Assembly: GCA_016839745.1 (NCBI GenBank)
Contig: JAEOTS010000124.1
Coordinates: forward strand, 1 to 12,031
Source of the DNA: Promethearchaeota archaeon
Lineage (GTDB): Archaea; Asgardarchaeota; Lokiarchaeia; Sigyniarchaeales; SOKP01
Length of the DNA stretch: 12,031 nucleotides
Direction of reading: 5' to 3'
Of this stretch, positions 880-10,114 are shown in pieces. A model generated the notes under the pieces. The model searched no databases and was not told the DNA's origin. It was given only the letters and a program-made list of their open reading frames with translations. A program made the position numbers and the translations under genes. How positions within the stretch are numbered: position 1 is the stretch's first letter; every line of letters begins with the position of its first letter.

Positions 880-1719
880 TTATTCTTGAAATTTTACTAA
901 AACTGTAGTAGCAATAACATCAAGTGTTTCTTGAAAGCGCTCGTCTTCTATATTTCCTATCTCAAAATATAAGGCTCCTATTTCTTTAGTGAGAGATAAA
1001 ATTTCTTTATAAGGTATAACCGTATTATTTCCCATAGCTATAAGTGCTATTGGTATGGAAATCTCCTTCCGAAATCTTCCTTTAGTTTTAAATTTTAATC
1101 CAGTGACTTCCTTAAGTTCATTATAATATCTTTTAATCATATCAAAAGATTCACGATTCTCTTTGTTAAATACTAGTATTGCCGCTGTTGCACCCCTATA
1201 AAATTGGGGTCTTAAAAAGGCAAATCGTTTCTGACGTGTAACATCCCAGATTTGAAGCCTTGTTAAGGTTTTATCGTAATTCTCAGTTAATTTAGTTAAC
1301 AAATTAACACCGATTATATCTCTCTCTGGAGCCATTTGAGGCTTATTAAAAACACTTGGAAGATAATCAGATTGTTCTTCCGTTAGACCAAGAATTATTA
1401 TTTTTAGCTGGTAATCATACTTTATTCCCCATTCTCTAAAACTAATTAAGAATTTTTCATACCTTTGGATTTTTTTCCGTAAATCGTATAATTGGCTGCG
1501 TTCTTTAGTTGAAAGTGGAGTCTCTCCAATAATCCGGCGTATAACTACTTCTACTTGCCCTGGACTAATTGTCTTTTCATATAACTCACTTATTTGAAAG
1601 GAAACTTCTTTTATATTAAACTCTTTAGATATTTTCTCTGTCGGAAACTGAATTTTCTTCAAAAACTTCTTTAAATCATCTATTTGTTTTTCGCTAAGAA
1701 AAATATTTTTAGAATTCAT
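880..1719 (-). CDS. Rab-like small GTPase-fold protein with degenerate nucleotide-binding motifs and ~100-aa N-terminal extension
   Basis: YDYQLKIIILG, IGVNL, RLQIWD, QKRF, FYRGATAAILVF and RESF follow the Rab consensus, but G1-G5 are all substituted. Start moved from 1746 to the ATG at 1719 because GGAGGT (1730-1725) lies 5 nt upstream of it. Confidence 0.8.
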   Translation of the reverse strand: MNSKNIFLSEKQIDDLKKFLKKIQFPTEKISKEFNIKEVSFQISELYEKTISPGQVEVVIRRIIGETPLSTKERSQLYDLRKKIQRYEKFLISFREWGIKYDYQLKIIILGLTEEQSDYLPSVFNKPQMAPERDIIGVNLLTKLTENYDKTLTRLQIWDVTRQKRFAFLRPQFYRGATAAILVFNKENRESFDMIKRYYNELKEVTGLKFKTKGRFRKEISIPIALIAMGNNTVIPYKEILSLTKEIGALYFEIGNIEDERFQETLDVIATTVLVKFQE

Positions 1720-1724
1720 TTTCA

Positions 1725-1730
1725 ACCTCC
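1725..1730 (-). promoter_or_regulatory. Shine-Dalgarno site
   Basis: GGAGGT-TGAAA-ATG on the minus strand. Confidence 0.65.
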
Positions 1731-1754
1731 TTTTTTCGTCCATCATTATTATTG

Positions 1755-3789: not shown

Positions 3790-4167
3790 ATGTATCAAAT
3801 TGAAAAAATTAACGATACTAGTTTTTATATAAAAGCAACTGGTACTTTTCCTCCACCGGTAGCAGAAAGATTTATAAAAGAATTTGAGGAGTTAACTAAA
3901 GATATTCACGATAAGTTAAGTATAATCGTCGACATTAAAGACGCTATTCTTTTGAGTATTGATTCAGTGGATATTATCCTTGAACTCTTGAAGAATAATA
4001 ATGAAAGGCTTTTTAGATCTGCTTTCATAATCGCTAAAAATCCCCCTCTAAGCGAAGAATTTAAATATCTCCTAGATCGTGCTCAATCTCCTAAACGAAA
4101 AATTGTATCCGACCTTGAGGAAGCGAAAGAATGGATAGGGATTGAAAAAATCGTGTTTAAGCAATAA
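3790..4167 (+). CDS. STAS/SEC14 (SpoIIAA-like) domain protein
   Basis: 125 aa with FYIKATG, IIVDIKDA, RSAFII and the terminal IVSDLEEAKEWI (F/V-x-x-x-EEA-xx-WL signature). Confidence 0.7.
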   Translation: MYQIEKINDTSFYIKATGTFPPPVAERFIKEFEELTKDIHDKLSIIVDIKDAILLSIDSVDIILELLKNNNERLFRSAFIIAKNPPLSEEFKYLLDRAQSPKRKIVSDLEEAKEWIGIEKIVFKQ

Positions 4168-5013: not shown

Positions 5014-5418
5014 ATGAACGTTAATGCAATTATGATGAAGAAAGAAAGGTTAAATAAGAATTTCTTGAATGACTTTCAATTTTACGACTTCACAAAAATT
5101 AAAGAGAATAAAATCTTTTTAGTTGGTTCAATTCGGTTTAAAGATTATTTCATTAAAATCGAGTCAATTTTACAAATTATATATAAAAAGCTTGTTGGAA
5201 TTTGTTCTGTCGATGGGTTGTTAAATAAAGATAAGTTTAATGAAGAAGAATGGGACAAATTGCAAGAGATAGCTATACAAAAATTAAATGATCAAGACGC
5301 AATTTTAGTCCTTGATGTTGATAACTATATTGGGGAGCAATCAAAAGAGGAAATCGAATATTTCAGCTCACACCTGCATAAACCAATATATTATTTGTCT
5401 AAACTTAAAATTGGATAA
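5014..5418 (+). CDS. Nucleoside 2-deoxyribosyltransferase-like (DUF4406-related) small protein
   Basis: KIFLVGSIRF ... QKLNDQDAILVLDVDNYIGEQSKEEIEY ... KPIYYL follows the NDT-like flavodoxin-fold pattern with a conserved Glu. True start may be 5032 or 5035 (TATA-like TTATATAT at 5004-5011). Confidence 0.6.
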   Translation: MNVNAIMMKKERLNKNFLNDFQFYDFTKIKENKIFLVGSIRFKDYFIKIESILQIIYKKLVGICSVDGLLNKDKFNEEEWDKLQEIAIQKLNDQDAILVLDVDNYIGEQSKEEIEYFSSHLHKPIYYLSKLKIG

Positions 5419-5580: not shown

Positions 5581-6561
5581 ATGGAATTGTTCCAAGTGTT
5601 TTGGGACGATCAAAAGAAACTTTTTTTAGAATTCGAAAAAAATGAGGAAGAGCAAGTTCTATTTCTCCCTGAGACGATAAACAGGTTAAATATCCAATTT
5701 GAAATTTCAAAGATAGTCAAGCAAGACATTTACTACAAGCAGACTCCATCATTAGTTTCCATTAAGAAAATTTATCATTCAACTGAATATTTAGGTTGTT
5801 CTATAGAATTAGATGAGATTCACGGGTTTTCTGATATTCAGATTAAAATATTAAGGTTGACGATTTACTTATACTCTGGTCAGAGAATTGAGTATACCTT
5901 TTCGGAGAAAATTAATGTATCTGATATTTGGGTAAACGATGATTGCTACGCAGGTTTCCAATTCGTCGATTTAAACTCACCTAAAAATCAGAGAAAGAAA
6001 GTAACTCGAGAGAGAGTAGTTCAAGCAACAAAAACTGATTTTAATCAAAAGAAAGAAGAGAAAACCGTTATTTATGAGAAGAGGAGTATTGAAAGCATTC
6101 CAACGGACCAGTCTGTAATATCAATGATGAATGAGAGTAATAAAACTTTAAAAAATATTGAGAAGCATTTAGCAAGCCTTGCATTAACCTTACAGAACAT
6201 GCCTGCTAATCCAATATCTTACGGTCCACCCTCTGGTGTCCCTCAGAGAATTACTGGACCTGGTATCGAAAGAATTAAAGGACCAGACGTACAATCGCTA
6301 ATACAAGGGCGGGGATCTTCGGCCAAACTATTAGTAATAAAGGAAATGAAAACAATTTTCAGAGAAACAACAGAGAAAAATAGTGGTTTCAGTATTAAGG
6401 ATATCCTAAAACCAATGGATGAGAAAGAACTTCAATCCATTATATTAAGCGAAGAGGAGCTTGTTAAAAAGGAAGAAGAATCAATTAATAATCAAATTAA
6501 ACGATTTAAAAAACAACAAGAAGAAAAAATCAAGTTAGAGCAGTTAAAAGAACCCGAATAA
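5581..6561 (+). CDS. Hypothetical protein (globular N-domain, coiled coil, Pro/Gly-rich segment, charged helical C-terminus)
   Basis: 326-aa ORF filling the space between neighbours and followed by T-rich tracts. No family recognised. Confidence 0.8.
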   Translation: MELFQVFWDDQKKLFLEFEKNEEEQVLFLPETINRLNIQFEISKIVKQDIYYKQTPSLVSIKKIYHSTEYLGCSIELDEIHGFSDIQIKILRLTIYLYSGQRIEYTFSEKINVSDIWVNDDCYAGFQFVDLNSPKNQRKKVTRERVVQATKTDFNQKKEEKTVIYEKRSIESIPTDQSVISMMNESNKTLKNIEKHLASLALTLQNMPANPISYGPPSGVPQRITGPGIERIKGPDVQSLIQGRGSSAKLLVIKEMKTIFRETTEKNSGFSIKDILKPMDEKELQSIILSEEELVKKEEESINNQIKRFKKQQEEKIKLEQLKEPE

Positions 6562-6676: not shown

Positions 6677-7465
6677 GTTGAGAATAATATTTTATTAAAT
6701 TACTTTATTGGGACAGCTGGAAGTGGTAAAAGTTCTTTAACAGGTTTATTTAAGGATTATGTTATAAATCGAGATCCAGAAATCTCAGCAATTACACTAA
6801 ACTTGGATCCTGGTGTTAAAATAATGCCATATAATCCAGATATAGATATTAGGGATTTTATTGTTCTTGAAGAAGTAATGACTGAATATGGATTGGGTCC
6901 AAACGGAGCAATGATCTTAGCATCTGATTTAATGGTTAATTTTTTGGACGATCTCAAAGATGAAATTGACGAATATAACCCAGATTGGGTATTTGTAGAC
7001 ACTGCTGGACAACTAGAGTTATTTGCATTTAGAGAAACGGGACCATTGATAGCAAGTACATTAGGTTTTGGATCTATCCAACGGGCTGTATCCTTCCTTT
7101 TTGATTCGAATTTTGTACTAAGACCAAATGGTTTTATATCAACACTATTACTAGCTGCCTCTGTGCAATTTAGGTTTAGAAATATTTCACAAATTAATGT
7201 ATTATCCAAAGTAGATCTGTTAAGCGAAGATCAAATTGAAATGATAATTAATTGGAGTCAAGATTTTAAAGCATTAGAGGATTCTACTAATGAGAGAGAA
7301 AGTGGACTGATAAGAGAGCTATCTATGCTAATTTCAGATGTATTTAGTCAATTAGGATCCACTTCTGAATTAATACCTTGTTCAATAAAAGAAGAAAAAG
7401 GATTAGATCTGCTTTTCGGCTATTTACAGCGTATATTTGACTCTGAAAAATCAAAATTCATTTAA
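6677..7465 (+). CDS. GPN-loop GTPase (ATP_bind_1 family); start uncertain
   Basis: Frame is open from 6647. P-loop GTAGSGKS at 6710-6733 lies upstream of the ORF-track TTG at 6803, followed by NLDPG, YGLGPNGA (GPN), DTAGQLE and LSKVD. No in-frame ATG/GTG/TTG precedes the P-loop, so 6677 (GTT) is a provisional start. Confidence 0.92.
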   Translation, partial: VENNILLNYFIGTAGSGKSSLTGLFKDYVINRDPEISAITLNLDPGVKIMPYNPDIDIRDFIVLEEVMTEYGLGPNGAMILASDLMVNFLDDLKDEIDEYNPDWVFVDTAGQLELFAFRETGPLIASTLGFGSIQRAVSFLFDSNFVLRPNGFISTLLLAASVQFRFRNISQINVLSKVDLLSEDQIEMIINWSQDFKALEDSTNERESGLIRELSMLISDVFSQLGSTSELIPCSIKEEKGLDLLFGYLQRIFDSEKSKFI

Positions 7466-7525: not shown

Positions 7526-8623
7526 ATGAAAATTATAGGTCCATGTGCGGGTATAGGGTCAAGATTACGCCCGTTCACGTTAAGTAAGCCTAAAACATTC
7601 ATAAATGTTGCAGGAAAGACTGTTTTAGAACATATTCTTAATAGGTTCAGCGAGACATTTGATTCAGGCACTGAATTAATTTTAATTGTTGGATACAGGA
7701 AAAGACAAATAATAGAATTCGTCAAACAGAAGTATAGTGATAAATTTAAATTAACTTTTATAGAACAAGAGCCTCGTGGATATAATGACGATACACCATT
7801 TTACTGGGGTTTAGGAGAGGCCGTATATCTAGCAAATACGTGTTTTGAAGAATCTAGTTATACGAATACAGAAACAGACAAACGTGATGGATCCTTAATT
7901 TTTTTAGCAGATATGATACCAATCGAGGAATATTCCTATTTAATGTATCGATATTATGAATCTGATGTAGATGGAATAATCACTGTAGTGGAAGTACCGG
8001 AAGAAGATGCAAGCTCATATGGAGTGGTTGTTATTGATAAGAATTCAATGATTCAGAAATTAATTGAGAAACCTAAAGATTTCATATCAAATTTAGCAAT
8101 TGCAGGTCTTTATGCCTTTTCAAACTCCGCAACTAAAGCTCTCTTTGATATTATAAAGGAGTATTTAGATAAAAGAACAGAGGGCTCTAAAGAAATCTAT
8201 CTGACAGAGAGTTTGCAAGATTTAATAAATAGTGGTTTTAAAATTGCAGCAATTAATTTAAAAAAGGGAATTCTGGATTTCGGTAGGCCTTCTGAAGTTT
8301 TAAAGGGTAATCGATATTTGTTAGAACAGCAATCGGTAAAAGTTGAAGAGTTTAAAGAATTAAACATCACTTCCGAAAAGTCCTACATAAAAAATCCAGT
8401 ATATATTGGAGAAAATTCTAAAATTATTAATTCAGTAGTGGGACCTTTTGTATCGATTGGAGCTGATTCATTAATAGAAAACTGTATCTTAGAAAATTGT
8501 GTTATTGAAAGGAACACTAACTTGAAAAATGTAATTTCTGAAAAATCTATAATTGGTAGTAATGTAAAAGTTGAAAATATTAGTAAGAATAACCTAATTA
8601 TTGGAGATAAAAGCATTTACTGA
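7526..8623 (+). CDS. Sugar-phosphate nucleotidyltransferase, long form with C-terminal left-handed beta-helix (glucose-1-phosphate thymidylyltransferase-like)
   Basis: AGIGSRLRPFTLSKPK, YGVV, LIEKP, SNLAIAGLYAF, EIYLTE, DFGRP and hexapeptide repeats (NPVYIGENSKIINSVVGPFVSIG). Confidence 0.9.
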   Translation: MKIIGPCAGIGSRLRPFTLSKPKTFINVAGKTVLEHILNRFSETFDSGTELILIVGYRKRQIIEFVKQKYSDKFKLTFIEQEPRGYNDDTPFYWGLGEAVYLANTCFEESSYTNTETDKRDGSLIFLADMIPIEEYSYLMYRYYESDVDGIITVVEVPEEDASSYGVVVIDKNSMIQKLIEKPKDFISNLAIAGLYAFSNSATKALFDIIKEYLDKRTEGSKEIYLTESLQDLINSGFKIAAINLKKGILDFGRPSEVLKGNRYLLEQQSVKVEEFKELNITSEKSYIKNPVYIGENSKIINSVVGPFVSIGADSLIENCILENCVIERNTNLKNVISEKSIIGSNVKVENISKNNLIIGDKSIY

Positions 8624-8740: not shown

Positions 8741-10114
8741 ATGCCCAAATATAATATCGCATTTGATGTAGCACACAAACCTAGAGGCAAAATCGACGAG
8801 AATCTCACAGAACTACGAGATTTCTTAAATTCAAACGACTTTCTTTGTTATAACTTCTTGGAAACTCCAATTACTCAAAATTCATTGAAAGCGTTTGATA
8901 TCTTAGTATTTGTCTGTCCAGATTTTGCTAGAATTAGTACCATGGAAATTAACGAAATTAATAATTGGGTTAGACAAGATGGAGGTGGATTACTGCTTTT
9001 ATCTCATGCAGGGGGAGATAAAGGAAGAAATAGCAATTTGAGTGAGCTTAGTCAAATTTTTGGCATCGTTTTTGAAAACGATCAAGTCTTAGATGAAACC
9101 TATAATCTAGGTATGGAAAATATGCCTATACTTACAGCATTCATACCACCACATCCAATTACAAATAGTGTAAGTTCGATATGTTATAGATCTGGTTGCT
9201 CACTTAGTGTATTAGGAAATTCGATTTCAATCGTTTCATCAAATGAGACTTCTGAACCGTTCTCATCTGCATTGGTTTGTGTTTCTGAGCCTGATAATGG
9301 TAGAATTTGTGCTATAGGAAGCTATGAAATATTTAGAGACAGAGTAGGTGGTGGATTTAGCAATGATGAACATCCAAATTTTGCGTTTAACATATTTTCG
9401 TGGTTAATTTCAGACTATAGAATGGAACTACACTCGAGTGGTGCAATTCCGGAGATTATTCCTCAAGAGGAAATACGTGTTCAACAATCATCAGATTATT
9501 CTTCATCTCTGACTCAATCTGGCTTAGAAGATAAACAAAAAATAGATATTAGCTTTTCTATGAACATAACAAGCAATAGCGAGTTAGTAGAATTGCTTAA
9601 AATATTTCAAAATCAAATTGTCACTATAAAAACAACAATTGATAAACTAATTAAAACGGCTATATCATCTGATAAAGATATTACTGAAGCGAAGAAACTG
9701 CAAAGAAAATCTAGTAAATCTTCACAAGAGCAGATTAAAAAATCAATTAATAATGGATTTGATGAATTATTAGCCCCACCAGAAGAATTATCTGATTTGC
9801 CCCCGAAACCCGATAGTTTAAAGGCGAAAGACAGCGAGAATCTTATTGGATTACCAAAACTCGATGCAGCAAATAAATTAAAACCCGTACCTAAACTGAA
9901 ATCTAGTAAGAAACCTAAAAAGAAAGATTTAATTGATCAAAAGAACGCATTAAAAAGTAAACTTGATTCGGTTAAAAATTTGATTGACTTTATAGAAAAA
10001 AAATACGCTTCCAAGCAAATGGATAAGAAATCTTATGAGAAACGTATTAGCCAATTGAAGATTGATTTGAAAACAACACAAAACAAAATTGATGAAATCG
10101 AAAAACAATTATAA
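8741..10114 (+). CDS. GIFT (GldG/IFT52, DUF4350-like) domain protein with coiled coils, Pro/Lys-rich linker and C-terminal helical hairpin
   Basis: IAFDVAH, PITQNSLKAFDILVFVCP, EINEINNWVRQDGGGLLLL, NLSELSQIFGIVFENDQV, HPIT, GRICAIGS..IF and FAFNIFSWL match the GIFT pattern over about 225 aa. No signal peptide or TM helix. Confidence 0.8.
   Translation: MPKYNIAFDVAHKPRGKIDENLTELRDFLNSNDFLCYNFLETPITQNSLKAFDILVFVCPDFARISTMEINEINNWVRQDGGGLLLLSHAGGDKGRNSNLSELSQIFGIVFENDQVLDETYNLGMENMPILTAFIPPHPITNSVSSICYRSGCSLSVLGNSISIVSSNETSEPFSSALVCVSEPDNGRICAIGSYEIFRDRVGGGFSNDEHPNFAFNIFSWLISDYRMELHSSGAIPEIIPQEEIRVQQSSDYSSSLTQSGLEDKQKIDISFSMNITSNSELVELLKIFQNQIVTIKTTIDKLIKTAISSDKDITEAKKLQRKSSKSSQEQIKKSINNGFDELLAPPEELSDLPPKPDSLKAKDSENLIGLPKLDAANKLKPVPKLKSSKKPKKKDLIDQKNALKSKLDSVKNLIDFIEKKYASKQMDKKSYEKRISQLKIDLKTTQNKIDEIEKQL

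Follow-up and report, generated by a model that had tools for sequence, protein, structure and literature searches.

Does an Asgard archaeon encode, in a protein that stays in its cytoplasm, a relative of the eukaryotic ciliary protein IFT52? The question is raised by an open reading frame at 8741–10114 (+) of the 12,031-nucleotide stretch analysed here (the window; contig JAEOTS010000124.1 of assembly GCA_016839745.1, a Promethearchaeota archaeon of the Lokiarchaeia), which has a G+C content of about 31% and contains typical Asgard genes, including those for a Ras-family GTPase and a GPN-loop GTPase. The usual account derives the machinery of intraflagellar transport (IFT) from protocoatomer-like and small-GTPase ancestors; to our knowledge, IFT52, the central scaffold of this machinery, has no described antecedent in archaea. 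GIFT domains were reportedly recognized in bacteria, IFT52 and OST48 by Beatson and Ponting in 2004; automatic Pfam annotation already tags the Asgard proteins in question, and a full-text search of the literature returned no paper mentioning both IFT52 and Asgard. Our overall best explanation for the gene, at a probability of roughly 0.55, is that it encodes an Asgard cytoplasmic GIFT protein of the IFT52 type with an adaptor-like role.

Domain layout and homology to IFT52

The reading frame is translated into a protein of 457 residues (P0001) without internal stop. More than 540 homologs were found, with identities of 61–89% among the 120 listed, and those carrying a name are hypothetical proteins of Lokiarchaeota or Promethearchaeota metagenome-assembled genomes. 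All orthologs (60–89% identity) share a common start at M-P-(K)-Y-N-I-A-F-D. No signal peptide or transmembrane helix was found in P0001 (highest Kyte-Doolittle mean over 19 residues 1.17, polar N-terminus), and the protein, from an Asgard archaeon of Lokiarchaeia type, is predicted to be soluble and to reside in the cytoplasm. The AlphaFold2 model, computed with 55 diverse homologs as input, has a mean predicted local distance difference test score (pLDDT) of 84.8: residues 1–240 form a compact alpha/beta domain (pLDDT >92), a long helix spans residues 279–323, and the protein ends in a helical hairpin (394–423 and 429–456, pLDDT >90), while the Ser/Gln-rich residues 241–278 and the Pro/Lys-rich residues 324–393 are modelled with low confidence. 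These parts map onto the window as follows:

8741–10114 (+): complete open reading frame of P0001, a predicted cytoplasmic GIFT-domain protein, 457 residues plus stop
8750–9445 (+): GIFT domain, residues 4–235, class-I glutamine-amidotransferase-like alpha/beta fold (Pfam, model, fold comparison, hhalign)
9446–9574 (+): Ser/Gln-rich linker, residues 236–278, of low model confidence and variable among orthologs (model, composition, orthologs)
9575–9709 (+): long single helix, residues 279–323, probably a coiled-coil segment (model, hidden Markov model (HMM) of the segment)
9710–9919 (+): Pro/Lys-rich stretch, residues 324–393, of low model confidence (model, composition, orthologs)
9920–10111 (+): C-terminal helical hairpin, residues 394–457 (pLDDT >90, HMM of the hairpin)

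A preliminary description of this DNA had read the frame as a cytoplasmic protein of the same length, with an N-terminal GIFT domain but neither signal peptide nor membrane helix, followed by a linker, a helix, a Pro/Lys stretch and a helical C-terminal end; all of these elements are recovered by Pfam, the model, composition and hydropathy. It had also likened the protein to IFT52, and for the GIFT domain independent comparisons converge on this. IFT52_GIFT (PF23355) is the sole Pfam family over its cut-off in P0001 (46.8 bits where 27.2 are required, E 2.6e-12, from residue 7), DUF4350 and ThuA appearing at E ~0.1. A search of PDB sequences returns three IFT52 chains at the top (E 6e-6 to 2e-3), the remaining two rows being unrelated proteins at E ~0.8. 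In phmmer, residues 64–121 of P0001 align to residues 68–124 of mouse IFT52, including the block GG..L...GEGGE...NIN.LLEEYGI..NNDAV, and the IFT52 segment given in the preliminary description proves essentially correct.

Comparison of structures leads to the same protein. In Foldseek, the N-terminal domains of IFT52 (IFT52N) rank first with the P0001 model as query, from E 6e-19 (5fmr_C) to 4.5e-17 and with TM-scores, normalised to the target, of 0.82–0.91, followed by OST48 at 2.5e-9 and then by ThuA-like and GH42-associated domains. An all-against-representatives comparison with VIA-align, using the AlphaFold2 query model, likewise identifies mouse IFT52N (5fms_A) as the best fold match (Z 29.2, root-mean-square deviation 1.9 Å, 214 residues), ahead of Chlamydomonas IFT52 (Z 22.7), human OST48 (20.2) and ThuA-like or GATase1-like chains (18.5 or less).

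Because the Pfam seed may itself contain archaeal sequences, a eukaryote-only IFT52 HMM was built to avoid circularity, from a set gathered by homology search with a 77-residue Chlamydomonas fragment. In a six-frame search of the genome it finds exactly five open reading frames, P0001 (about 49 bits, E 1.2e-13) and four paralogs, over a range of E 1e-13 to 2e-6, whereas a sixth match reaches only E 0.015. A locus search based on patterns from the eukaryotic IFT52 alignment returned no prokaryotic relative, these patterns being specific to IFT52. In the reverse direction the archaeal HMM spans positions 4–228 of eukaryotic IFT52, and hhalign aligns the ortholog and IFT52 alignments over residues 42–233 with a probability of 96.4%. 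Within the GIFT signature of P0001, i.e., GG (81–82), S-H-A-G-G-D (88–93), N99, P173 and G-S-Y (193–195), the residues G81, G82, G91, G92, D93, N99, P173, G193 and S194 correspond to residues invariant in eukaryotic IFT52, and three motifs are common to both proteins (GG...GG[DE]....N, FGI...ND.V and G[RK]....GS..F.D). Homology of residues 4–235 of P0001 to IFT52's N-terminal GIFT domain (PDB 5FMR, 5FMS, 8BD7 chain B) is certain, extending over about 190–230 residues at an identity of about 17–20% in structural alignments and of 25% over the hhalign core. The two domains also differ, IFT52 carrying insertions that P0001 lacks and the archaeal proteins carrying an F-D-x-x-H motif that is not that of IFT52.

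The other known members of the fold are more distant. GldG/ABC_transp_aux (PF09822) and DUF4350 (PF14258) belong to the same superfamily, and paralogs and some relatives of P0001 show sub-threshold or marginal matches to them; P0001 itself scores 13 bits against DUF4350, below the cut-off of 30.4, has no ABC_transp_aux match reported in Pfam at E up to 1, and differs further in the absence of a signal peptide or membrane anchor. P0001 is much closer to IFT52 than to any of these families, so that the position far from IFT52 that the preliminary description had named as the finding to speak against it is not where the protein lies. The N-terminal domain of OST48/WBP1 (PF03345) shares the GIFT fold and forms the second-best structure group, but OST48 is a membrane-anchored, luminal subunit of the eukaryotic oligosaccharyltransferase, whereas P0001 is predicted to be soluble and cytoplasmic; PF03345 has no match in this genome. 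Asgard homologs of OST48/WBP1 have been published as eukaryotic signature proteins and are reported to be restricted to Heimdallarchaeia (PMC10307638), and the family described below is distinct from them.

An Asgard-wide family and the placement of IFT52

The P0001 family is widespread in Asgard genomes, with matches in 170 of 201 genomes and 22 of 27 GTDB families. Beyond the family and order of the window these matches cover the GIFT domain alone, full-length orthologs being confined to that family and order. Domains scoring over the PF23355 cut-off occur in 54 of 61 Asgard genomes, mostly as several copies per genome, as compared with 5 of 61 Verrucomicrobiota and none of 14 control genomes. 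The source genome (3.5 Mb, 89% complete) has five genes for GIFT proteins, all of which lack a signal peptide. Among 1.84 billion representative proteins searched, only 507 matched; close relatives nearly all carry the domain at the very start and are devoid of transmembrane segments, and some of the distant ones are exported or anchored proteins of 800–2,100 residues.

Two groups can be distinguished. Clade A comprises P0001-like proteins, almost all without signal peptide or transmembrane helix, including sequences from 13 Asgard GTDB families, together with one protein labelled Korarchaeota and one labelled Ranarchaeia; it is an Asgard-wide family of cytoplasmic GIFT proteins, many of which end in the same hairpin. 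In clade B this genome's other paralogs stand together with exported proteins and with proteins of bacterial origin (Verrucomicrobiota, Actinomycetota and Bradyrhizobium), the bacterial members lacking signal peptide and transmembrane helix.

Two careful maximum-likelihood trees (66 and 72 rows; LG+C20+F+G4 with posterior mean site frequencies, PMSF) both unite eukaryotic IFT52 with clade A against clade B, with supports of 100/98 and 100/99. Consistently, the IFT52 profile scores 216 against clade A and 167–182 against clade-B groups in hhalign, alignment depths differing between the groups, and the combination of GG[DE], N99, P173 and GS is common to IFT52 and clade A and is complete in no sampled clade-B protein. 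Within clade A, IFT52 adjoins either P0182 (the Ranarchaeia protein) or families f4, f5, f10, f18 and f27, with weak support, and does not stand beside the subfamily of P0001, which is a derived member of clade A and not the one nearest to IFT52.

Several results weigh against this placement. By approximately unbiased (AU) tests, a position of IFT52 among the exported and bacterial GIFT proteins is not rejected (log-likelihood differences of 2.4, p 0.44, and 8.1, p 0.23), and a quick tree of 131 rows puts IFT52 within clade B. With the eukaryote-only HMM P0001 obtains about 49 bits, against about 100 bits attained by other archaeal proteins, among them Asgard proteins of families f10 and f26 and an exported protein labelled Thermoprotei, and the top scorers include the exported P0237 and P0225 of about 1,100 residues (93–100 bits). 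GIFT proteins without signal peptide or transmembrane helix, moreover, are also found in bacteria, as the clade-B members attest. All of this speaks for a rival reading in which P0001 would be an ordinary member of the prokaryotic GIFT/GATase1-like superfamily, resembling IFT52 in retained ancestral features only, with IFT52 descending from another lineage such as the exported archaeal or the bacterial GIFT proteins; P0001 would then say nothing specific about the origins of IFT. We regard this as unlikely, because both careful trees keep IFT52 out of clade B, the larger tree joined it to long-branch rows and came with a long-branch warning, signature residues and profile scores prefer clade A, P0001 stays far under the DUF4350 cut-off with ABC_transp_aux unreported, and domains of the PF23355 type are far commoner in Asgard genomes than in the sampled bacterial phylum.

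With the careful trees in support and the AU tests and the quick tree not, the sisterhood to IFT52 raised in the preliminary description is favoured only, by the two careful trees, the profile scores and the signature residues. On balance, the prokaryotic relatives nearest to the IFT52 GIFT domain are somewhat more likely than not to be those of clade A. That this clade is also the archaeal lineage from which this domain descends is a more tentative proposition, to which we would give slightly less than even odds. Should it hold, the backbone subunit of IFT-B1 would consist of an Asgard-derived head that later gained the regions binding IFT88, IFT70 and IFT46, and clade A would represent a eukaryotic signature protein, so far unreported, that is connected with how the cilium arose. 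Being abundant, paralog-rich and cytoplasmic, clade A would, as the nearest or near-nearest relative of IFT52N, be a candidate for the pre-ciliary role of the domain and would offer an experimentally tractable protein in cultured Lokiarchaeia; should the affinity be unspecific, it would still constitute a large uncharacterised Asgard family with a conserved two-module design.

Some features of further GIFT proteins may be recorded here. The four paralogs of the genome are encoded at L003:1363-2628 (+), L001:934-1860 (-), L002:961-1839 (-) and L005:1063-1791 (-). Two of them show, by eye, a ribbon-helix-helix-like segment after the GIFT domain, for which Pfam reports no such family, the paralog in L003 has a weak HeH/SAP-like motif at its end (E 0.0075 for HeH, 0.096 for SAP), and a relative is annotated as a 'predicted transcriptional regulator'. 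Bacterial GIFT proteins, namely P0215, P0218 and P0230 and those of the bacterial loci L022-L033, carry a DESHxESW motif in chains of 520–715 residues without signal peptide or transmembrane helix, and the three named, which are metagenomic, have a common C-terminal domain resembling the TIR or nucleoside-deoxyribosyltransferase fold.

The tail and the missing IFT features

Beyond the GIFT domain the likeness to IFT52 is one of layout. Both proteins, P0001 by prediction, are cytoplasmic and have the domain at the N-terminus, after which come a Pro-rich region and a small helical end, a layout which the preliminary description had called an IFT52-like architecture. This can be kept as an analogy only. 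The hhalign homology ends at residue 233, and no homology of the P0001 tail to the middle or C-terminal regions of IFT52 was found by HMM, by two Pfam families or by two profile-profile comparisons. The central region of IFT52 (PF23352), which binds IFT88 and threads through IFT70, has no match in the genome, and its C-terminal domain (PF21178), which pairs with IFT46, gives no match; an HMM of the eukaryotic C-terminal domain likewise finds nothing, and the profile of the P0001 hairpin aligns to that of the IFT52 C-terminus with a probability of 0.1%. IFT46 itself (PF12317) was not found at E up to 0.1 in this genome, which is 89% complete.

The same holds for the contacts of the GIFT domain. 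K130 and R204 of IFT52 are surface residues required for the association of IFT-B1 with IFT-B2 (PMC4818760, PMC9753473). They align to N127 and S176 of P0001, and the corresponding positions in clade A read N/T/S and A/S/T, i.e., are not conserved. Because the parts that bind IFT88, IFT70, IFT46 and IFT-B2 are absent or not conserved, P0001 is, on the evidence of its sequence, not an orthologue of IFT52 in function; as neither the rest of the protein nor the genome shows another IFT feature, it would not be an archaeal IFT52 but possibly a relative of the ancestral type. A linker motif, EL..PP.EL.DL, was likened to PPPP.LELFDLDE of IFT52 and set aside, being too short, in a different order and outside every profile alignment.

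The segments of the tail differ in how far they are conserved. The HMM of the long helix (279–323) matches 10 clade-A representatives, this segment being conserved in closer relatives only; and the Pro/Lys stretch (324–393) has the short conserved motifs L..LPPKP, IGLP and KLKP, the linker HMM matching, among full-length clade-A representatives, only P0127, a relative at the ortholog level. The hairpin HMM matches 22 clade-A representatives, including the distant P0148, P0155 and P0182, which lie near IFT52 in the trees, and no clade-B protein or eukaryotic IFT52. The C-terminal hairpin is a conserved module of many clade-A proteins, distant ones included. The HMMs of helix, linker and hairpin match no other protein in this genome, so the tail is not a module shared with other proteins there.

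The preliminary description had further termed part of the C-terminal end SHOCT-like. The hairpin motif G-x-[ILM]-[TSD]-x-x-x-[YF]-x-x-[QKR], near the C-terminus of P0001, does recall this short C-terminal domain (PF09851), and relatives give sub-threshold matches to it in the corresponding place, with 15 bits (E 0.018) for P0204, where the cut-off is 27, and E 0.34 for P0148, none of them exceeding 15 bits; P0001 itself, however, has no SHOCT match even at E 10, and the label is weak.

The hairpin (394–457) also superposes on that of the S. islandicus CdvA filament (9s9g_A; Z 10.5, root-mean-square deviation 0.7 Å, 64 residues), and P0155 shows weak Pfam matches to Vps28 and to the Vps23 core at the hairpin position. 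Homology to CdvA, Vps28 or the Vps23 core was set aside, as the likeness probably reflects a common antiparallel two-helix arrangement.

Possible function and genomic neighbourhood

Our best guess is that P0001 acts as a multivalent cytoplasmic adaptor. The GIFT head would serve as a binding platform, as in IFT52, and the tail, with its low-confidence Pro/Lys and Ser/Gln stretches, long helix and SHOCT-like hairpin, would oligomerise or dock the protein, head and tail together giving it several valences. A scaffold function is what we infer from these comparisons, and IFT52N has been described as an interaction domain without enzymatic activity or sugar binding (PMC4818760). The immediate neighbours of the gene are as follows:

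7526–8623 (+): sugar-nucleotidyltransferase-like protein, NTP_transferase plus left-handed beta-helix (LbH), upstream neighbour (Pfam, locus comparison)
6803–7465 (+): GPN-loop GTPase (ATP_bind_1), next gene upstream (Pfam, locus comparison)

In an alternative reading the GIFT head would bind a ligand or catalyse a reaction, possibly with a sugar or sugar nucleotide, and the protein would work with the neighbouring nucleotidyltransferase instead of being a protein scaffold. One argument for it, and one that counts against a purely adaptor-like role, comes from the many polar residues invariant among the orthologs (D9, H12, K13, R15, H89, D93, D118, H138, R150, C153 and H211); IFT52 differs at several of these positions, and for such residues a ligand or catalytic site is an explanation no worse than a pure scaffold. 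The F-D-x-x-H start motif, moreover, is kept in both clade A and clade B, the fold is that of class-I amidotransferases and glycosidase-associated domains, in every one of the six loci examined of the window's family and order the NTP_transferase/LbH gene is the immediate, co-oriented neighbour of the GIFT gene, and other GIFT proteins are involved in glycosylation (OST48) or polysaccharide-linked gliding (GldG), according to Beatson and Ponting (2004) as cited in PMC4818760. Yet the position of the amidotransferase nucleophile reads S-H-A-G-G-D, with no Cys, the adjacency of the nucleotidyltransferase is lost beyond the order, where families f3 and f21 have only a weak homolog 1.5–3.5 kb away, and IFT52N binds no sugar. 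Taken together, an enzymatic or ligand-binding head appears improbable, more so than the superfamily alternative considered above, and the adaptor reading is the one we prefer.

The surroundings of clade-A genes vary between families, and among the loci examined no association holds across the whole phylum. The GPN GTPase gene is found upstream in each of the five loci examined from the same family as the window; the sole sister-family (f2) locus, L058, did not show it. In family f7 the clade-A gene adjoins a HIT-family gene, and in families f8 and f19 it is arranged tail-to-tail with a gene for an ARPC4-like protein (ARP2/3 complex 20 kDa subunit), a pairing that could reflect a functional link to the actin system or inherited synteny:

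L061:4695-5465 (+) and L062:4783-5358 (+): clade-A GIFT gene/ARPC4-like pair, families f8 and f19 (E ~3e-7)

Other genes of the window can be described briefly. The GPN-loop GTPase frame at 6803–7465 (+) begins with a TTG codon at profile position 32, and its orthologs are some 20–40 residues longer (239 residues in L054), so its true start probably lies upstream. The Ras/Roc-family small GTPase at 880–1746 (-) has 288 residues, with the GTPase domain at residues 141–282 preceded by an N-terminal extension of about 140 residues that matches no family. Four reading frames, at 5014–5418, 5581–6561, 3790–4167 and 101–847 (all +), have no family over threshold; orthologs of the first three occur in four, three and two of the related loci examined, respectively, and within the set there are two weak matches, one with the Man1-Src1p C-terminal domain (E 0.019), the other with the WhiA LAGLIDADG-like domain (E 0.026).

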